Source: an uncultured Chloroflexia bacterium
Lineage (GTDB): Bacteria; Chloroflexota; Anaerolineae; CG2-30-64-16
Assembly (NCBI GenBank): GCA_963810095.1
Contig: CAWEMM010000006.1
Location: forward strand, 704,001-768,000
Direction of reading: 5' to 3'
DNA length: 64,000 nucleotides
The notes beneath the pieces are model-generated. The model saw only the letters and a program-made list of their open reading frames with translations. It had not been told where the DNA came from and did not search any database. Below are positions 24,348 to 39,939 of the stretch, in pieces (within the stretch, counting starts at the first letter, position 1; the number at the start of each line of letters is the position of its first letter). The position numbers were made by a program, and so were the translations under genes.

Positions 24348-24375
24348 CAGGCTTCAGTAGCAGTGGGGAGGGAAT

Positions 24376-25229
24376 ATGTTTGCGCCGGATCTGCTCAAGG
24401 ACAAGGTGATCCTGATCACTGGCGGCGGCACCGGCCTGGGCCGGGCCATGGGCGAGCGGTTTCTGCAGCTTGGCGCCAAGCTTGCCATCGCCAGCCGCCG
24501 GGAGCCGGTTCTCCGCCAGGCCGCGGACGAGATGATGGCCGCCTGCGGCGGGGAGGTCTTGCCCGTCGTGTGCGACGTGCGCGACCCCGAAGCGGTCGAG
24601 GCGATGATGGAGGCGGTCTGGGCGCACTACGGCGGGCTGGACGTCCTGGTGAACAATGCCGCGGGCAACTTTGCCAGCCCCACCGAGAAGCTGTCGCCGC
24701 GGGCGGTCGACTCCGTCCTGGGCATCGTGCTGCACGGCACCTTCTACTGCACGCTGGCGGCCGGCAAGCGCTGGATCGCCTCGCAGCAGCGCGGGCGGAT
24801 CCTGAACATCGTCGCCACGTACGTCGAGTCCGGTTCGGCCTATGTGACGCCCTCGGCCGCGGCCAAGGCCGGCGTCATGGCGCTCACCCGCTCGCTGGCG
24901 GTGGAGTGGGGCAAGCACAACATCACGACGGTGGCCATCGCGCCGGGCCCTTTCCCCACAGAAGGCGCGTGGTCGACGACTGATGCCCGGCGAACAGCAT
25001 GACCGAGCTCGCGCTCAACCGCATCCCGCTCAGGCGGGTGGGGCGGCACGAGGAGCTGGCGAACCTGGCGGCCTACCTGCTCTCAGACATGGCCGAATAC
25101 ATCAACGGCGACTGTATCGTGATCGACGGCGGCGAGTGGCTGAAGGGTGCGGGCCAGTTCTCGTGGCTCGAGATGCTGAGCGACGACGACTGGGCGCAGC
25201 TCGCCGCCCGCGCGCGCCAGGGCAAGTAG
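24376..25229 (+). CDS. SDR oxidoreductase (2,4-dienoyl-CoA reductase-like); frameshift near 24985
   Basis: TGGGTGLG, NNAAGNF, SAAAKAG, IAPGPFPT, RIPLRRVG, INGDCIVIDGG. Confidence 0.85.
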
Positions 25230-25322: not shown

Positions 25323-26483
25323 ATGCTTCCCCAACTGCCGACGTCGTCGTCATTGGCGGCGGCGTCATGGGCGCCAGCGCGGCCTATCACCTGGCCGCCG
25401 CGGGCGTCAAGAATGTCGTCCTGCTCGAGAAGCACGAGTTTCTGGGCGCGGAGGCCACCGGCAAGTGCGCCGGCGGCATCCGCTACCAGTTCAGCACCGA
25501 GATCAACATCCGCCTCTCGCAGATCAGCCTGCCCATGCTCCAACGGTTCGAGGAGGAGACCGGGCAGAGCATCGACCTGCGCTGGCCCGGCTACCTTTTC
25601 CTGCTGGACAACCCGCACGACCTCGCGGTGTTCCGGCAGAACGTGGCGCTGCAGAACTCGCTCGGCGTGCCCTCGTGCATCCTTTCGCCCGACGAGATCG
25701 CGGACACGGGTCCCGCTGCTGAACCTCGAAGGCGTGCTTGGCAGGCGCGTGGCACGCGGGCGACGGCCTGGCCGACCCGAACGGCGTGGTCCAGGGCTAT
25801 GCGGCGGCGGCCCGCCGGCTGGGCGCGAAGATCTTCACGGCGACCGAGGTCACAGGGATTCGGTCGAGGGCGGCCGGGTTACCGGCGTGTCGCACGCCGC
25901 AGGGCGACATCAGCACGCCGGCGGTCGTGAATGCCGCCGGCCCGTGGGCGGGCAAGGTCGCCGCGCTGGCCGGGCTCGACTTGCCCATCGTCCCGCTGCG
26001 CCGGCAGATCGTCGTCACCGCGCCGCTGAAGGGCGTGCCCGACGACTTTCCCTTCGTGCTCGACTTCAGCCGCTCGCTCTATTTCCACCGGGAGGGCAAG
26101 GGCATCCTGACCGGCCAGTCGAACAACAAGCGAGAAGCCGGGCTTCGACCAGTCGATCGACCACGCCTGGACCGAGCAGCACCTGGAGAACGCGATGTGG
26201 CGCTTCCCGCTGCTGGCCAAGGCGGGCCTGCTGCGCGAATGGGCGGGCCTGTACGAGGTCACGCCCGACGCGCACCCGGTCATCGACACGCGTGGCACGA
26301 TCCGCAGGGCTTCACCATCGTCGCAGGCTTCAGCGGGCACGGCTTCATGCACGGCCCCGTCGCCGGCCTGCTGGCGGCCGAGCTCGTGCTCGCACGGCGC
26401 AGGCGCACACGCTCGACATGCACCAGCTGCGCTTCAGCCGCTTTGCCGAAGGCGACCTGGTGACGGAGCACAACGTCGTCTAA
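25323..26483 (+). CDS. FAD-dependent oxidoreductase, DAO/sarcosine oxidase beta-like; frameshifted
   Basis: VVIGGGVMG, TGKCAGGIR, VVNAAGPW, WAGLYEVTPD, GFSGHGFM. Confidence 0.85.
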   Translation: MLPQLPTSSSLAAASWAPARPITWPPRASRMSSCSRSTSFWARRPPASAPAASATSSAPRSTSASRRSACPCSNGSRRRPGRASTCAGPATFSCWTTRTTSRCSGRTWRCRTRSACPRASFRPTRSRTRVPLLNLEGVLGRRVARGRRPGRPERRGPGLCGGGPPAGREDLHGDRGHRDSVEGGRVTGVSHAAGRHQHAGGRECRRPVGGQGRRAGRARLAHRPAAPADRRHRAAEGRARRLSLRARLQPLALFPPGGQGHPDRPVEQQARSRASTSRSTTPGPSSTWRTRCGASRCWPRRACCANGRACTRSRPTRTRSSTRVARSAGLHHRRRLQRARLHARPRRRPAGGRARARTAQAHTLDMHQLRFSRFAEGDLVTEHNVV

Positions 26484-26545
26484 GGCGAAGCAGACCTCGC
26501 GCGTACTGATCGCCTCGGAGGCTCTTGATCCTATGGGAGGAATGC

Positions 26546-28052
26546 GTGGACATCGTTGTCAAGCAAGGTAACATCGCGCAGGAGGCAGCCGAACTGATCG
26601 TCGTCAACCTGTTTCAGGGCGTCACGCTGCCCGGCGGCGCAACCGGCGCGGTCGACGGCGCGCTCGGCGGCATGATCCGCGACGTGCTGGCCACGGGCGA
26701 CTTCACGGGCAAGGCCGGCGAGACGCTCGTGCTCTACACTCGGGGCGCAGTCCCTGCGCCGCGGGTGCTGATCGTCGGGCTGGGCGAAGCGGCCAAGTTC
26801 GACCTGCAGGGCGTGCGGAACGCGTCGGCCACGGCAGCGCGCAAGGCACGTGAACTGGGCGTGAAGCGCTTCGCCACTATCGTGCACGGCGCCGGCATCG
26901 GCGGGCTGGAGCCGGAGCGCGCCGGCACAGGCGCTGGCGGAGGGCGCGCTGCTGGGCCTGTACCGCTTCGAGGGCTACCGCTCGAAGCCGCCCGAAGGAC
27001 TGGAAGCCCGACCCGGAGAAGATGACCGTCGTCGAGTTCAGCGGCGAGCGGAGCGCGGCGCTCGAGGCGGGCATCCGCCGGGGCGAAGCCGTCGCCGCGG
27101 GCGTCAACCTCGCCCGCCACCTGGTCAATACGCCGGCCAACCACATGACCCCGGCCGTAATGGCCGAAGCCGCCGAGGCACTCGCGCGCGAGACCGGGCT
27201 TGATTTCGAAGCACTCGGCCGCGCCGAGTGCAAAGCGCTCGGCATGGGCATCTTCATGGCCGTCGCCGAGGAATCGGAGCAGGACCCGAAGCTGATCGTC
27301 CTCGAACACAACAAGGGCGCCCGCAACCTGCCTACCGTCGTGCTCGTCGGCAAGGGCGTCACCTTCGATTCGGGCGGCATCTCGATTAAGCCGGGCGAAG
27401 AGATGTGGAAGATGAAGGGCGACATGGCCGGCGCAGCGGCGGTGATCGCGTGCCCTCGGCGTTGCTGCCCGCCTGAAGCTGCCGCTCCACGTCGTCGGGC
27501 TTGCGCCCTGCGCCGAGAACCTGCCCGGCGGCCGCGCACAGAAGCCCGGCGACGTCTTCACGGGCATGACCGGCAAGACGATGGAGGTCATCAGCACGGA
27601 CGCCGAAGGCCGGATGCTGCTGGCCGACGCGCTTGGCCTACGCCGCCCGCTTCAAGCCGGCCGCAGTGATCGATATTGCCACGCTGACCGGCGTGCAGAG
27701 CATGGCGCTGGGGCCACATGCCGCCGGCTTCTTTGCGAACGACGAAGCTCTGGCGACCCGGCTGGTCGCGGCAGCCGAGGCGTCGGGCGAGCGAGTGTGG
27801 CGCTTCCCGCTGTATGATGAGTACCTGGAGCCGATCAAGAGCCAGGTGGCCGACGTAAAGAACACGGGCGGCCGCTACGGCGGGCTGGGGACCAGCGCGA
27901 AGTTCATCGAGCACTTCACCGAGGGCTATCCCTGGGCCCACGTCGACATGGCGTCGATGTCGCTGGCAGATGACGACAAGCCGGCCAAGCCTAAGGGCGC
28001 GACAGGGTACGGCGTGCGCTTGTTCACCGCGCTGCTGGAGGGCTGGAGGTAA
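26546..28052 (+). CDS. pepA: Leucyl aminopeptidase (M17); frameshifted
   Basis: [49 protein letters not shown]. Confidence 0.92.
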
Positions 28053-28621: not shown

Positions 28622-28742
28622 GATGCCTCCGATAAATGCTGCTGCTGTGCGCGGTGCGAAGCGAACAAGGACCGCGAGCAGCTGCGCCTGGCTGCCCGTT
28701 TTATCTTTTGACGCTCAAAGCATGTGCCGGGTTACACCCAAC

Positions 28743-30958
28743 TCAGAGCGCTGCGACCAGCAGCAGGGTCATGTCGTCGGCCTGCTCCGCGCCGTTCCGA
28801 TATGCTTCGAGCTCGTGCGCCAGTGCCCCGCACATTTCATTCGCCGCGCAGGCCGCCATGCTGCTCTACCAGGCCGGTGAGCCGCGACAAGCCCAACAGG
28901 GCGCCGTCCCCGTTCATCACGTCGGTGAGTCCGTCCGTGTAGAGCACGAGCCGGTCGCCCGGCTGCAGCACGACTTCGTGCTCGACGAGCGTCGCCCCCA
29001 CGTCCTCGAACACGCCGAGCAGCATCCCGTTGCCCCCGAGCTGTTCCACGGCGCTCCCACGGAGCAGCAATGGCCGGTCGTGCCCCGCGCGCGCATACAC
29101 CAGCCGGCCGGTGTCCCCGTGCAGGACTGCATAGAAAACCGTCACGAACATGCCCTGCTCGCCCAGTTCGAGCAGCAGGCGATTCACGTTGGCGAGCACG
29201 ACCCGCGGCGAAGGCTCTCGGGTCGCCTCGGCGCGGATCAGGCTCCGGCTCAGCGCCATGTAGAGCGCCGCGGCCATCCCTTTGTCCGACACGTCCGCGA
29301 TCACCAGTCCCACCCGGGCATCGCCCAGGTCGATCACGTCGTAGAAGTCGCCGCCAACCTCCCGGGCGGGCTCGTTGTACGCGGCAAAAGCATAACCGGG
29401 CAGGCTCGGGAAGGTGTGGGGCAGGAAGCTCTGCTGCACTTGCCGGGCCAGTTCCAACTCGCGCGCCATGCGCGCCTTGACTGCCAGCTCGGCCTGCGCG
29501 GCTTCGAGCGCCGCCACCTTGGCGCGTAACTGGGCCGTCAGCCCCGCCCGCTGCAGCGCCAGCGCGGCCTGGGCCGCAAACGTCTGCAGGAGGGCAAGGT
29601 GGCCGGGCGCAAAGCTGGTGCGCACCGTGCTGTGGACGTACAGCGCACCGACCGTCTCGCCTTGGGCCGCCAGCAACACACGGACGCCTGCCCTGAGCAC
29701 CGCGCCCTCGACATCGGGGGTGCGCCAGGGAATGCCCGGGGGCCAGCTGTCGAAGGGTGCAGGCCGGCCCCGCGCCTGCCTCGCCGGAAGGCAGGACACA
29801 CTTCTTCGACCGGTTGGGGCCCGGGCAGCCTGTCCGCGCCCCAGCCGGCCTCCCCGAGCGCGACTCCCTGGCCGTCCGTCGCCGCGTATAACACGACACG
29901 GTCCGCGCCGCACAACTCGCGCGCCTGCTGGCAGATGTGGCGTGCCAAGGCCTCGGGTGTCGCATCGGATAGGAGCACCTCGCTCATCCGCTGCAAGCGA
30001 CACCAGGGCCTCTGTCCGCTGCGCCGACACCCGGTGGGCCGACTCCAACTCGGCGACCTTGCGCTGCAGCGAGGCGTTCGCCTCACGAAGCGCCGCCTCG
30101 CTGGCCGCCTTGAGCGCGTGCGCGTGCTTGATCTGCATGGCTTCCAGCGATAAGACGTCGTCAAGCGTGAAAAAGCCATCCTGGGCCAGTTGGAGTGCGT
30201 ATGCCTCATAGGAGACGACGGTCTGCCGCTCAACGGGCCGGTAGATGTCGAACAGGGTCACCTCGCCCGAGCGCCCCGAGCCATCGCAGCGGGCGCACCC
30301 GTTGGCCTCGTGCGCCACGGTCGGCAGTTCCAACGGCAGTGGGAACCTGGCGCGGAGCTCGGCCAGTTCCAGGGGATTCGGAGGGCGGGAGGTCAGGCAG
30401 GTGGGGCAGAGCGCGGGCATGCGCTGGCTGCTGAGCGACCCAGTCCAGGTGGTGGAGCAGAAGCTCGCGGTCGGCGCCGTCGTCCACCAACTGGCGAACC
30501 AGGCCCACCCCGCGATAGGGTGTGTCGATTTGGGCGAGCACCTTGACGCCCCGGCCGGCGAGTTGGAGCGCGGCTTCCGCGACCCGGGCATCCTCGATCT
30601 TCTCCACGATCAGGAGCTCGGGTGGGAGGCCCATCAACGCAAGCAGGCGGGCCCGCACCTCGTCCGCATCGCCCGCGGCGACCACGTCGACACGCCGGCG
30701 TTCCTCACGCCGCACCCGCAGCATGTCGCGGTTGCCCGAGATGATGACGACGCGACGCTTTGTCTGGGCGAGCAGCCGTCGGGCAACCAGACGAAATAGA
30801 GACCCGCGGCCAGACGGCAAGGGCAACTGGTCGGCTATGGAAACCGAAGGGGGGGTCTCGATGCCGGCAACCAGCACAAGACCGGCCGGCTCGACGACAA
30901 GTTGCTCGACTGCCTCGGCCAGCGCGGGCAGATGATGGATGTCGCTCAGGTCAAGCAT
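28743..30958 (-). CDS. Fusion: degenerate PilB/GspE-type ATPase domain + coiled coil + GAF + PP2C/SpoIIE Ser/Thr phosphatase; frameshifted
   Basis: ORF 30230..31081 continues into 28837..30591. LCPTC...GCARCDGSG Zn motif; GAF VGALYVHS...LLQTFAAQAALAL; PP2C EVGGDFYD, IADVSDKG, RAGH, LYTDG, DDMT. Confidence 0.75.
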
Positions 30959-31053
30959 GAGGCTATTAATGACACACCTCCGAGGTTTGCGCCACTCTGC
31001 AGCGCTGGAAACCTCGGAGGTGTGGAAGGGGTCGACGTGTGCAGGGGCCAGGC

Positions 31054-31435
31054 TCAGGCGGCGCGGTCGCTCCGGTGCCACCAGACGTAGGCGACAATGC
31101 CTGCGATGGAGACGGCGGATCCGACGGCGGCTGCGGCAGCGGCGCCGAGAACCCAGCGCCGCTCGAGGCCGTCCCGTTCTCCGGTCACATCGCCCGACCG
31201 GTCGGGAGTGGCAAACGCAGCTTGAGTGTTTTGCTGCCGAGCGGCGGAGACAAGGCTGCGCTCGAGGTCATCACGGAACTGCACGGCGGGCGTCATAGGA
31301 AGCAGCAGAGCGGCCAGTTCGCGCGCGAGCGCCAGGAACGGCATGACGGTCAGACACGTCCGCAGGTTGAGGCGTTGCGGGCGTGCGCGTCATGAAGAGG
31401 ACCTGGGGCAGGAATGCAAAGAGACTGCCAGACAT
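31054..31435 (-). CDS. Small single-TM protein, probable anti-sigma factor; 5' part frameshifted
   Basis: Follows the ECF sigma; FLALARELAALLLPMTPAVQFRDDLERSL helix, C-terminal TM; ATG at 31435 with GAAAGG RBS. Confidence 0.55.
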
Positions 31436-31539: not shown

Positions 31540-32139
31540 CTACCAGTCGCGCGCTTCCAGATCGGCCTTCAGGGCTTTCAACGTCCTGAAATACAACGAC
31601 TTGATCGCGCTTTCTGTTCGCCCCATCACCGCGCCGATCTCTTCGTTGGACAACCTGTCGGCGTACTTGAGAATCAGCAGGCGTTGCCGCTCCTCGGGTT
31701 GCCGTCGAATTGCCGACCACAGCGCACTGCGCCGCTCGTTGCTCTCAGCCACCCGCTCCGGGCCATCCGCGGGCTTCCCGGTGAGCTCCAGATCCTCCAG
31801 TGAAGTCAGTTTCCACCGGCTGTGTGACCGGTGGTGGTTGGCTACCAGGTTGTGGGCAATGCGATACAGCCATGCCACGAACGGCACGCCGTGATCCGTG
31901 TACTTCGGGAGATGCGTCAGCGCCTGGTGAAAAGTACGGGCGGTCAGGTCCTCCGCATCCGCCACGTTGCCCGTCCGGTAGTAGATGTACGTATAGATCC
32001 GATCTACGCACCGGCGGTACAATTCACCAAACGCACCGGGGTCCTCCTTTGCCAACTCGACCAAGGCTCCCTCGGTCAGATCGGCGTAAGGACTCTCCGG
32101 CGCCACTCCGTCTGTTACCTGGCTCTGCAAACGTGGCAT
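31540..32139 (-). CDS. ECF RNA polymerase sigma-70 factor
   Basis: AFGELY, DAEDLTARTF, WLYRIAHN, LSNEEIG...ESAIKSLYFR. Confidence 0.92.
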   Translation of the reverse strand: MPRLQSQVTDGVAPESPYADLTEGALVELAKEDPGAFGELYRRCVDRIYTYIYYRTGNVADAEDLTARTFHQALTHLPKYTDHGVPFVAWLYRIAHNLVANHHRSHSRWKLTSLEDLELTGKPADGPERVAESNERRSALWSAIRRQPEERQRLLILKYADRLSNEEIGAVMGRTESAIKSLYFRTLKALKADLEARDW

Positions 32140-36242: not shown

Positions 36243-39200
36243 TTGCAGCTGACACAACTAGTGAAACTTAACGGGTTACTGGACTTAGGCCAGGGGCTGA
36301 CCGCCATCGACGAAATGGCGGCCGCGCTGGCCGCGGGCGAAACGCCCGCAACACCGCTCGACGTTTATCACTCCGCCCGGCCCTACGTCGTGGCGGCGCT
36401 TGTACGCGCCCTAAACCGGCCCCTGGTCGTCGTGACGCCGCGTTCGGTGCGCGCCCGCCAGTGGGTCGACGAGTTGCGGGTCTGGCTGCCGGACGAAGTG
36501 CCCGTCTATAACTTCGCAGACCCCGACGCCCTGCCCTACGAACGCATTCCCTGGGCCCCCGAGACACGCCAGCGCCGGCTGGAAGCCCTGCTAGGGCTGC
36601 TCGCCTGGGCAAGCCCGACGCCGGCTGCCCCGTTTGCCCCCGTGGCCGTCGCTTCCGCCCGTGGGCTCATGCAGATGACGCTGCCCGTGCGCGAGATGCG
36701 CCTTGCCATGCGGCCTATTCGCCAAGGCATGGCTTTCGACCTCGACCGGGTCCTTCTGAGCTGGGTAGGCCTGGGGTACGAGTCTGCGGCAGTCGTCGAA
36801 GCGCCGGGCCAGTTCAGCCGCCGGGGCGGCATCGTCGACGTCTGGCCGTCCAACCTGCGGCGGCCGATCCGCATCGAGCTCTTCGGCGACGAGGTCGACA
36901 GCTTGCGCACCTTCGACCCGTCGACCCAGCGCACCATGGACCGCATCCAGGAATCCTCGGTCGGCCCGGCCAGCGAGGCGCTGCCGAAGCTGGGCGAGCG
37001 CGCGAGCGAACGGCTGGCGACACTCGACCTCTCCACGTGCCATCCACCCGCCCGCATGGAGTTCGAGCGCGAGATGCAGGCGCTGCGATCCGGATCGGGA
37101 TTCCGCAGCCTCGAGTGGTACATGCCGTACCTGTATGCCCAGCCCGGCGTCTTGACCGACTATCTCCCGGCCCTCGGCGCGCAGCAAGGCGCGGGGCAGC
37201 CGCCCGCGGCGCACCTCATCGTTGAGGATGCGGGCGAATTGCTCGTCAGCCTGGCCGATCTGGAGGGCCAGGCCGAGCAGTTGGGCCGCGACTTGAAAGC
37301 CGCAGGCGACATCCCCGAGGTTGTGCTGCCGCCCTACTTCGTCGCGGGCGCCCTCGTCGAAAAGCTCACCAGCCGGCCGGTGATCTACCTCGGTCACACG
37401 ACCCTTGCCAATGGGGGCGCGCCCAAGGGCAGCGACGGCAACGGCGAAGCGTTGGCGCGTCATTTCCATGCCGGGCCGCGCTTTGGTGGACAGGTGCGCG
37501 TCGATTCTCACCGAGATCGAGCCCCCGCTGCGCAACGGCGAGCACGTGGTGATGGTGAGCCGCCAGGCGCCGCGCCTCGCGGAGCTCCTGCGCGAGAACG
37601 GCCATGCCGTGGCGCCCGCAGACAACGTGCCGCAGCCCCCGCCGCCGGGGCTCACGCTCGTCCAGGGCGTCATGGAGGAAGGCTGGCGGCTGGGGCCGAA
37701 CGGGGCAACAAACCAGGTTTCTTCGGAGAAACCTGGCGCGGCGGGCGCACCCCTCTGGTTCCTGACCGACGCAGAGTTGTTCGGCTGGGGAAAGCCAAAG
37801 CCGCGGCGGCCACAGCGTACGAGAGCCGTCGCACCCGAGGTCTTCTTCGCCGACGTCCAGGCCGGCGATTACATCGTTCACCTGGAGCACGGCATCGGCC
37901 AGTTCAAGGGCCTGATGAAGATGGCCGTCGACGGCGTCGAGCGCGAGTACCTCCAGGTGGAGTACGCGCAGGGCGACCAACTGTACGTCCCTGTCCACCA
38001 GGCCGACCGGCTCGCGCGCTACGTGGGCGCGGGCGACGCGACGCCGTCGCTGCACCGCTTGGGCACGGCCGACTGGGAACAGGTCAAGGCGCGGGCGCGC
38101 AAGGCGGTTGCGGAGATTGCCGACGAACTGCTCGAGCTGTACGCGGCTCGCGAGGTCGTCGAAGGACACGCCTTCAGGCCCGACGCAGCCTGGCAGCAGG
38201 AGCTCGAGGCGAGCTTCCCGTACGTGGAGACCGAGGACCAGTTGGTCGCGATCGAGTCGGTCAAGCACGATATGGAGCAGCCGCGGCCGATGGACCGCCT
38301 GATTTGCGGCGACGTGGGCTACGGCAAGACGGAAGTCGCGCTGCGTGCCGCGTTCAAGGCGGTCATGGACGGCAAGCAGGTGGCGATCCTGGTGCCGACC
38401 ACCGTTCTGGCCCAGCAGCATTACACAAACTTCAGCCGCCGCCTCGCAGCGTTCCCCGTGACGGTCGCCATGCTTTCGCGCTTCCAGACGCCCGCGCAGC
38501 AAGACCGCACGCTTTCCGGCCTCGCCAACGGCTCAATCGATCTCGTCATCGGTACGCACCGCCTGCTGAGCAACGACGTCTCGGTCAAGGACCTGGGTCT
38601 GCTGATTGTGGACGAGGAGCAGCGTTTCGGCGTGAGCCACAAGGAGAAGATCAAGCAGCTGCGCACCGAGGTCGACGTGCTGACCCTCACTGCAACGCCG
38701 ATCCCGCGCACGCTCCACATGAGCCTGACGGGCGTCCGCGACCTGAGCACGATCGATACGCCGCCGGAAGAGCGGCTGCCGATCAAGACGTTCGCGGGTG
38801 ACTTTGACGAAGGGCTGGTGCGCCAGGCGATCCTGCGCGAGGTGGACCGGAACGGCCAGGTCTACTTCGTCCACAATCGGGTGCAGGGCATCGAACAGAT
38901 CGCCGCCAGAATCCACAAGATCGTGCCCGAAGTGCGGATCGCGATTGCGCACGGCCAGATGCCGGAGAAAGAGCTCTCCGCGGTCATGTTGGCCTTCGCC
39001 GAGGGCGATTACGACGTGCTGATCTGCACGACGATCATCGAGTCGGGCCTGGACATTCCCAACGCGAACACCATCATTATCAACCGGGCCGACACATTCG
39101 GCTTGGCCCAGCTCTACCAGCTGCGCGGCCGTGTCGGACGCTCCGCCGTGCGCGCGTACGCGTATTTGCTGGTCGACAAGTACAAGACCCTGACCGAGGA

Positions 39201-39939
39201 CGCACGGCGCCGGCTAGAAGCCATCCAGGAGGCGAGCGACCTGGGCGCGGGCTTCCGCATCGCCATGCGTGACCTGGAAATCCGGGGGGCCGGCGAGCTG
39301 CTGGGCGCCCGCCAGCACGGCCACATCGCGGCGGTCGGTTTCGACCTGTACACCCGGCTGCTGGCGCAGGCGGTGCAGGAAGCGCGCGAGCGGGCTGGCG
39401 GCGCGCCGAGAATGCGGGACGACGACGAAGCGGAACGTGCATCGGAGGCCGGGGGACCGCTGCGCAACGTGCTCGAGGACCCACTGGCGCCCACAGTGCA
39501 GCTCGACCTCAACCTGCCGTCACGCATCCCCGAGGAGTACGTGCCCGAAGGTGCGCTGCGCCTGCAGCTCTACCGCCGCCTGGCCGGCCTCACGACGCTC
39601 GAAGCGGTCGCCGAGATGGCCCAGGAGTTCGCCGACCGCTTCGGCCCGGTGCCGCAAGAGGTGCAGAACCTGCTGTACGTCGTGGGCGTGAAGGTGCGGG
39701 CGGTCAATGCGGGCGTCGAGGCCATCGGCATGGAGGAAGGCCAGCTCCTGATCAAGTGCTCATGTCTTGAAGCGATGGATCGCCTCAAGCTGCAGGAGCG
39801 CTTGAAGGCGCAAGACGTGCCGGGCAGGGTGTCGCGGCGGGCCGTCTGGATCGAGATGCGCGAAGGCGGAGCCCCGGCGCCCGCGGGCGGCGCCTGGCAG
39901 CGCGACCTGGTCAAGGCGCTGGAGCTGATGCGGGAATAG
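36243..39939 (+). CDS. mfd: Transcription-repair coupling factor; one frameshift near 37500
   Basis: UvrB-homology N-terminus ([22 protein letters not shown]), [55 protein letters not shown]. Confidence 0.96.

Follow-up and report, generated by a model that had tools for sequence, protein, structure and literature searches.

A PP2C-type sensor phosphatase of Chloroflexota with a degenerate GspE/PilB-like ATPase domain as its putative input module

The motor ATPases GspE, PilB and PilF (EpsE 1P9R, PilF 5OIU, PilB 5TSH/5ZFR; PF00437) share a C-terminal domain of ~250 residues with a common order of motifs and a CXXC-x33-CXXC Zn subdomain that sets the clade of assembly ATPases apart from PilT. 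The same fold, motif order and Zn subdomain open a protein encoded on the minus strand of a 64,000-nucleotide stretch (the window, taken at its full length) of contig CAWEMM010000006.1 from an uncultured Chloroflexia bacterium. Unlike the motors, this protein lacks the N1E and N2E domains, has its catalytic residues replaced, and carries ahead of the P-loop an insert that measures 8-16 residues across its family; it is fused to signalling domains, shows no link to pilus or secretion genes, and is predicted to form a dimer instead of a hexamer.

With RsbU, RsbP, RsbZ and other PPM phosphatases, the protein shares a C-terminal SpoIIE/RsbU-type PP2C domain, a GAF domain and linkers predicted to dimerise. 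Control of PPM dimers by coiled-coil linkers that connect them to sensor domains at the N-terminus has been described for RsbU, and models extend it to phosphatases linked to GAF, PAS, receiver or HAMP domains (PMC12143880); the inputs listed there are PAS, receiver, GAF, HAMP and the RsbU N-domain, and the word 'ATPase' does not occur in the text of that paper. In contrast to the RsbU-type systems, the first putative input here is an apparently dead secretion ATPase, and no STAS or kinase genes are adjacent. An S-helix is a parallel coiled coil marked by an 'ERT' signature; it typically stands between N-terminal sensory domains and outputs that include PP2C and cyclases (excerpts of PMC1592074). 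Neither a T2SSE/GspE-like domain on PP2C nor such a pseudo-ATPase was found in the full-text literature or in NCBIfam (subscription journals and InterPro architecture tables being outside the scope), which agrees with an earlier note on this DNA, whose author knew of no characterised protein of this architecture. Within the literature covered, the protein counts as a sensor PP2C phosphatase whose pseudo-ATPase input module has no precedent. Its gene is composed as follows.

30958..28743, minus strand: whole gene, with ATG at 30958 and TGA at 28745-28743; product of ~736 aa without the five assembly insertions.
30148..30958, minus strand: pseudo-ATPase domain, residues 1-270, with the fold of the GspE/PilB C-terminal ATPase domain and no N1E/N2E ahead of it.
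29970..30147, minus strand: long helix or coiled coil, ~residues 271-329 (59 residues), S-helix-like, with a conserved Q-R-T core.
29608..29957 (approximate), minus strand: GAF domain, from Pfam and the model; three of the insertions lie in or beside it.
29395..29607 (approximate), minus strand: second helical linker, from GAF to PP2C, corresponding to helices 456-490 and 496-516 of the intact 742-aa homologue P0001.
28746..29394, minus strand: PPM/PP2C domain of the SpoIIE/RsbU type (Pfam, 1.3e-41), conserved Asp residues intact.

The N-terminal domain resembles secretion ATPases far more closely than chance would allow. Among PDB sequences, a profile built from eight N-domains retrieved EpsE (9e-13), PilF (8e-12) and PilB (5e-9), over the stretch from Walker B to the Zn motif. 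Comparison by hhalign with seven genuine PilB/GspE sequences (99.66%, E 2.7e-25, 253 columns) set residues 1-273 on columns 291-564 of 575, which span the complete C-terminal ATPase domain and take in its P-loop half. The AlphaFold2 (AF2) model of the domain, based on a 71-sequence alignment (predicted local distance difference test, pLDDT, 94.4; predicted template modelling score, pTM, 0.91), matched PilF, PilB and GspE in Foldseek at E 1e-18 to 1e-15 (best 8.6e-19, TMq 0.69). In VIA-align, model residues 1-275 were placed on PilF 128-400 or PilB 294-568 (Z 24.2, root-mean-square deviation 2.9 Å, 249 residues). No N2E domain is present: residue 1 aligns to PilB residue 294 by VIA and to column 291 of the 575 in the PilB profile by hhalign. 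The Zn-bearing assembly ATPases are the top fold match (VIA Z 22-24), ahead of PilT (~19), CpaF (~17) and VirB11 (~16), and the domain therefore derives from the Zn-bearing assembly-ATPase clade, without N1E and N2E. A protein language-model look-up also led to T2SSE clusters.

Pfam T2SSE is absent at E<0.1 from the broken pieces of the gene in the window, and was seen in four of five intact homologues at E 5e-7 to 5e-5. With respect to the gathering cut-off of 24.9 bits, P0001 (29.1) and the N-domain of locus L006 (25.8) lie above, P0002 (24.2), P0004 (22.6) and P0005 (22.6) lie below, and P0003 gives no match. Across the family, 48 of 71 members match T2SSE at E<=1e-3, the match covering only profile positions ~200-340 of 370.

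The degeneration of the domain is reflected by its motifs, whose roles (ASP-box, catalytic Glu, HIS-box) follow McCallum et al. 2017 (excerpts of PMC5424180); all column counts refer to 71 aligned family members.

30821..30862, minus strand: variable Pro/Ala-rich insert, residues 33-46, between strand β1 and the P-loop remnant; disordered in models.
30800..30820, minus strand: Walker A remnant L-P-S-G-R-G-S, residues 47-53; Lys replaced by Arg, second Gly by Pro.
30590..30625, minus strand: Walker B remnant PPELLIVEKIED, residues 112-123; acidic residue at the PilT-like Gly site, Lys at the catalytic Glu site.
30521..30550, minus strand: HIS-box remnant GVKVLAQIDT, residues 137-146; both histidines replaced.
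30286..30408, minus strand: tetracysteine Zn motif CPTC-x33-CARC (CM subdomain), from the family alignment.

A genuine Walker A motif reads GPTGSGKT (GxxGxGK[ST]); its counterpart here is G32, the insert and P-L-P-S-G-R-[SAGT], which departs from the consensus. In the window the insert comprises 14 residues between GLVLVAG and LPSGRGS, and its pLDDT falls under 50 at P0001 residues 39-48. P0086 has no insert, the P-loop remnant following directly after strand β1, which supports the Walker A assignment. Within the remnant, S49 is found in 67/71 members, G50 in 69/71 and R51 in 63/71 (Lys in 3/71), while the Ser/Thr after R51 is kept in 30/71. The two Glu positions of the ASP-box, 77 and 81, which serve to coordinate Mg in real motors, are occupied by R/K in 48/71 and by R in 58/71, respectively. 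Position 119 of the Walker B remnant, where Gly is an atypical feature of PilT-like ATPases, holds Asp in 50/71 and Glu in 18/71, and the catalytic Glu at position 120 survives in only 7/71, being otherwise R, Q, K or H. The first His position of the HIS-box is of the L/V/I type and the second is Asp in 55/71.

The Zn site is retained. The region reads QRMPALCPTC, then GCARCDGSGRSGE, then GFFTLDDV; all four Cys are present in 71/71 as CXXC-x33-CXXC, as is G32. The spacing of 33 falls inside the CXXC-x21-40-CXXC pattern by which the GspE/PilB metal-binding domain is defined (excerpts of PMC5061722), Zn binding itself being predicted. In L003 and L004, from the close relatives G007 and G004, the first Cys pair is C-x-C instead of C-x-x-C, with all four Cys present.

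By these substitutions, the residues required to hydrolyse ATP have all been lost, and the N-domain is predicted to be catalytically dead. Ordinary Mg-ATP binding also appears doubtful, because the P-loop Gly is changed to Pro, the Lys to Arg, and the Ser/Thr is lost in 41/71. Several arginines are conserved (R81 in 58/71, R84 in 64/71, R89 in 56/71), and their conservation, together with that of S-G-R, suggests a site for anions or phosphate. In the closest intact pair (G007/G004), the ratio of nonsynonymous to synonymous substitutions (dN/dS) is 0.25 in the N-domain, equal to that of the PP2C domain, and 0.05-0.06 in the two helical linkers; dS of this pair is near saturation (0.8-1.15) and makes the ratios rough. 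Those of distant pairs were discarded for saturated dS.

The full-length AF2 model of P0001 (pLDDT 89) places a helix at 276-334, GAF at 339-455, helices at 456-490 and 496-516, and PP2C at 527-741. The core of the first helix is formed by E308, R314, V315, L316, Q318 (41/54), R319 (51/54), T320 (51/54), L323 and S325. As in S-helix proteins (PMC1592074, in part), a long conserved helix of predicted parallel type leads from an N-terminal module to signalling domains, with the Arg and Thr of the ERT signature in place. It differs from the S-helix in having Gln instead of Glu first, ~59 residues instead of ~40, and a GAF domain instead of an output next in line. GAF (PF01590) scores 37-44 bits in homologues against a cut-off of 22.4 and matches 60/71 members; in the window its halves, in different frames, score 24.9 and 21.3 bits.

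SpoIIE (PF07228) scores 143.1 bits on the window piece (cut-off 25) and reaches E ~1e-50 in homologues; it matches 57/71 members, the rest being mostly truncated fragments. D542, D545, D560, D680, D732 and D733, which we take to be the metal ligands, are invariant (54/54), as are the blocks GGDFYD, DVSDKG, TDG and DDMT, and in sequence the PP2C domain is intact. P0001 passes no NCBIfam model cut-off; the nearest models for the C-terminal half are RssB (E 2e-23) and SiaA (1.2e-12, linker and PP2C). These P. aeruginosa proteins align over linker and PP2C, with scores far under the cut-offs (83 vs 700 bits) and different N-terminal domains.

The earlier note had aligned the N-terminal ~270 aa by eye with the PilB/GspE ATPase domain, held the catalytic Lys, Glu and His to be substituted and the four Zn cysteines kept, and recognised a coiled coil, a GAF domain and a SpoIIE/RsbU phosphatase with intact motifs downstream. 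Every motif string that it quoted is present in the minus-strand translations. The alignment is borne out by profile, hhalign, Foldseek and VIA matches, the substitutions by the column counts, and the downstream domains by Pfam, the models and the invariant Asp residues.

The family is real and narrowly distributed. Queried against longer proteins in a word-indexed search, the N-terminal 175 aa retrieved five that are intact, measure 737-746 aa and are 66-73% identical; their source names mention phosphatase only. Among 40 relatives searched, five genomes carry the gene, all from one taxonomic family (5/24 of its genomes): full-length uninterrupted copies occur in G007, G004, G024 and G012, and a once-split copy in G001. 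Intact orthologues measure 737-756 aa. Against 1.84 billion cluster representatives, the N-domain profile returned 93 proteins at E<=1e-30, most of them 714-800 aa long and nearly all matching from residue 1, followed at much weaker E-values by genuine PilB/GspE; the layout is common to ~90 clusters at 50% identity.

The earlier note had proposed a search of Chloroflexota for this architecture. A pattern scan of 185,579 species genomes found 33 loci, 32 of them in metagenome-assembled genomes (MAGs) titled Chloroflexota (Anaerolineae, Anaerolineales, Thermoflexales, Ardenticatenaceae or 'Chloroflexia') and one in a MAG titled Acidobacteriota. All 33 fall into one cluster of open reading frames (ORFs) with a median of 748 aa. 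Of 400 other genomes sampled evenly from the phylum, only one had a match at E<=1e-25. By bin label, P0002 belongs to a Nitrososphaerales archaeon and L043 to an Acidobacteriota bacterium, all other located copies being from Chloroflexota; both are likely mis-binned.

The module is found with more than one output. In P0055 (825 aa), the same N-module and GAF precede a PAS domain and, in place of PP2C, a class III nucleotide cyclase; P0015 bears an additional C-terminal GNAT domain. In P0151 (511 aa), a T2SSE C-terminal domain with apparently intact GSGKST and hhhhDE motifs and the tetracysteine motif is fused directly to a class III adenylate/guanylate cyclase, and this protein may be a less degenerate relative from the same recruitment. 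On these architectures, the ATPase domain has entered signalling proteins more than once, or in stages. Ranking just below the family are proteins of ~1000 aa with two tandem full T2SSE domains (P0094, P0099, P0108, P0137, etc.), of which P0137 also bears T2SSF segments.

With this domain order, the catalytic residues lost, the Zn motif kept, the PP2C domain intact and the whole conserved, the protein is probably a cytoplasmic sensor phosphatase of ~736 aa in which the pseudo-enzyme N-module, with the GAF domain, serves as a regulatory input acting through the coiled coils of a dimer. The N-module is placed where sensory inputs sit in PP2C phosphatases, ahead of a conserved signalling-type helix. 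The earlier suggestion of an ATPase fold reused as an input thus holds as regards signalling position and modularity, its extension to PilB co-assembly being unsupported. A small ligand carrying phosphate, or a partner protein, might bind in the former nucleotide pocket, now remodelled and rich in arginine, and so act as the trigger; alternatively, the Zn site might change. Such a change at the N-module would alter the register or rigidity of the coiled coil, and this in turn might switch the PP2C dimer on or off as in RsbU and other PPM phosphatases; by analogy, linker-controlled activation of the RsbU type is probable. As a default guess, the likely substrates would be phosphorylated anti-sigma antagonists of the STAS type, with genes at other places in the genome.

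A parallel homodimer held by the coiled coil is predicted by modelling. A complex prediction for two copies of P0001 1-480 scored 0.56 (best of three controls, 0.00), a value reached by 20 of 30 solved one-chain pairs and by 1 of 23 solved single chains, although a coiled-coil dimer may score high through likeness to solved structures. The dimer runs showed at least 84% contact agreement and a partner pLDDT of at least 77. Predicted contacts follow a heptad pattern over 271-327 and include 152-161, 201-212 (between the Cys pairs) and 248-251.

Several points weigh against a regulatory input module of this kind. One of the three complex runs scored only 0.09. The charges in the old pocket are swapped, with Arg at the ASP-box sites and Asp at the Walker B Gly and second HIS-box sites; together with the P-loop Pro, these could equally indicate a pocket filled by salt bridges, with a structural or docking role. 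No neighbour is conserved either: in an unbiased clustering, no ORF family occurs in more than ~7 of the 33 loci, and the context therefore points to no substrate or partner.

It is also possible, as a tentative generalisation, that dead GspE/PilB domains form an unrecognised modular sensory class, whose Arg-rich pocket or Zn site would bind a nucleotide, a second messenger or a phosphate-rich metabolite and whose S-helix-type coil would pass the signal to interchangeable outputs (PP2C mostly, class III cyclase at least once).

A somewhat doubtful alternative is that the N-module is only a scaffold for dimerisation or docking, comparable to the RsbU N-domain with its need of a partner protein, and that GAF is the true sensor. 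Elements of the N-domain and the Zn subdomain do lie in the predicted dimer interface, the charge swaps fit a filled, non-binding site, and the tetracysteine Zn of EpsE and PilF is reported to be structural (PMC5061722, in part). However, S-G-R, R81, R84 and R89 are conserved while missing from the error-filtered list of dimer contacts (residues not listed there count as uncertain), and a conserved neighbouring partner gene was not found in the 33 loci.

The four invariant cysteines might instead act as a Zn or redox switch, oxidation or Zn loss unfolding the CM subdomain and thereby regulating the phosphatase. This is unlikely. Region 201-212 of the CM subdomain does belong to the predicted interface, and an OsmC-family gene adjoins in the window and the closest relatives; the adjacency is nevertheless limited to 2 of the 33 loci and to close kin, and invariance of the cysteines is equally expected of a structural Zn, as in real GspE/PilB.

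Continued activity of the N-domain, as an ATPase or as a switch that binds nucleoside triphosphates by non-canonical chemistry (an Arg P-loop with the canonical Walker B Asp), is decidedly improbable. An acidic residue does occupy the canonical Walker B position in 68/71 with S-G-R conserved, and P0151 carries GSGKST and hhhhDE on a cyclase. Against this, the family has lost the Glu residues of catalysis and of the ASP-box, both His and, in most members, the P-loop Ser/Thr, and the protein has neither N2E nor arginine fingers; in the real motors, the arginine fingers and hexamer contacts involve N2E of the neighbouring packing unit (excerpts of PMC5424180).

As deposited, the gene is broken. 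The six-frame ORF list gives one gene in three overlapping pieces on the minus strand: ORF 30230..31081 is the N-terminal piece and holds the motif strings quoted in the earlier note, the long piece 28837..30591 contains the two Cys pairs, the coiled coil, half of GAF and most of SpoIIE, and the third-frame piece 29538..30233 supplies the other half of GAF. A tblastn comparison with an intact homologue and a three-frame read locate five frame changes (codon phase 1>0>2>1>0>2), each of them +1, as expected from one error mode. Logan contigs from four runs of one freshwater-sediment study were compared over 28700-31000.

30437: assembly insertion 1, a single surplus base of the window that the X1 and X3 contigs lack.
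29998: assembly insertion 2, one extra base, left out in the X4 contig.
~29795 and ~29766-29771: two inferred single-base insertions (3 and 4), from frame logic and homologues.
28847: assembly insertion 5, one extra base, left out in the X2 and X3 contigs.

The breaks in the window are assembly errors and the gene is intact, because contigs drop the extra base at three sites and neighbouring housekeeping genes are fragmented likewise. One of the contigs lacking the base agrees with the window at every other position over 217 bases. Removal of the five bases by script leaves one uninterrupted frame of 736 aa, identical to P0001 in 587 of 742 columns (79%). The gene pepA (M17 aminopeptidase; 506 aa and intact in G024) yields five high-scoring segment pairs with four frame changes in the window, and four further ORFs (521, 1267, 397 and 285 aa in relatives) are also frame-split. 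The four runs come from a single study, may include the window's own sample and are not independent, and the sites at ~29795 and ~29766-29771 lie within 29624-29854, where these runs give no contig coverage. The earlier note had placed indels near 30430 and 28850; contigs do lack a base at 30437 and 28847, but there are five breaks, not two. It had also taken reads with a real stop between the N-terminal domain and GAF-PP2C as grounds against its reading; the reads at the 30437 break favour fusion. Real frameshifts, in a decaying pseudogene or between separate genes for the N-domain and GAF-PP2C, are very improbable: the window sequence as given does hold five frame changes, but the extra base is absent from short-read contigs at three sites, pepA and other genes show the same fragmentation, every phase step is +1, and relatives carry intact fused ORFs.

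Many genes between 15961 and 39933 of the window are frame-split with respect to the intact ORFs of relatives, e.g., pepA at 26510-28049; others lie at 24370-25226, 25403-26480 and 36261-39933. Frequent single-base indel errors of the assembly may also depress its completeness estimate (88.5%).

In the window and the closest kin, the gene order is pepA, OsmC, the phosphatase gene, a 96-aa membrane protein, an extracytoplasmic function (ECF) sigma factor and DegV. The 96-aa protein (31054-31344, minus strand) has a C-terminal hydrophobic stretch and a weak anti-sigma match (18 bits), and the ECF sigma factor (31540-32139, minus strand) is BldN-like, under the equivalog cut-off. A family-wide link to these two genes was considered and rejected; they adjoin the phosphatase gene in 5 of the 33 loci, all from close kin. 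The partner-switching module STAS/HATPase_c_2 is not recurrent beside the gene in the 33 loci; in the own genome, STAS and RsbW-type genes stand beside other PP2C paralogues.

A strong hairpin of ~23 pairs (30973-31024, minus strand) lies ~15 nt upstream of the ATG, between the membrane-protein gene and the phosphatase gene; the 111-nt stretch has a folding energy of -45.6 kcal/mol (z -4.1). L003, L004 and L007 also have a hairpin with a T-rich tail just upstream of their start codons, and the structure may serve to terminate or attenuate transcription of the sigma operon. The ATG has no evident Shine-Dalgarno sequence ahead of it.

No pilus genes recur beside the gene in the 33 loci. Neither a further T2SSE above the cut-off nor a T2SSF platform protein was found in G024 (98% complete), G001 (75%) or G007 (90%), where the phosphatase gene itself gives the sole T2SSE match above the cut-off or there is none; G004, G012 and the own genome have only Tad/CpaF-type ATPases, which lack the Zn motif. 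The sole strong T2SSE match of the own genome (G000:C12:272306-273122, L001) is such a Tad/CpaF-type ATPase, split by a frameshift. A further reading, which takes up the co-assembly with PilB put forward in the earlier note, has the module cap a true PilB/GspE hexamer or assemble with it and so report on the state of pilus or secretion system. It fits the fold, which is closest to PilB/GspE, and the packing of the C-terminal domain of real motors on N2E of a neighbour (PMC5424180, in part), but finds no support in these genomes and is most improbable. As a general mechanism, PilB co-assembly is unlikely because no real PilB or platform protein was found in the 98% complete G024, absence from incomplete genomes being no proof.

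For annotation, the finding means that gene calls from the window assembly will be fragmented by frequent single-base insertions, and that the architecture is invisible to routine annotation, the sources naming phosphatase only. Its host group, the Anaerolineae-type Chloroflexota, is known almost only from metagenomes. Sensor PP2C phosphatases govern sigma-factor partner switching and stress responses, and a recruited secretion-motor ATPase, apparently without catalysis and kept under selection in ~90 clusters, would add to the catalogued PP2C inputs and is coupled to at least two kinds of output. The family is also a place to examine what the GspE/PilB tetracysteine Zn subdomain does alone, and may represent a clean natural case in which a motor enzyme has become a regulatory pseudo-enzyme.

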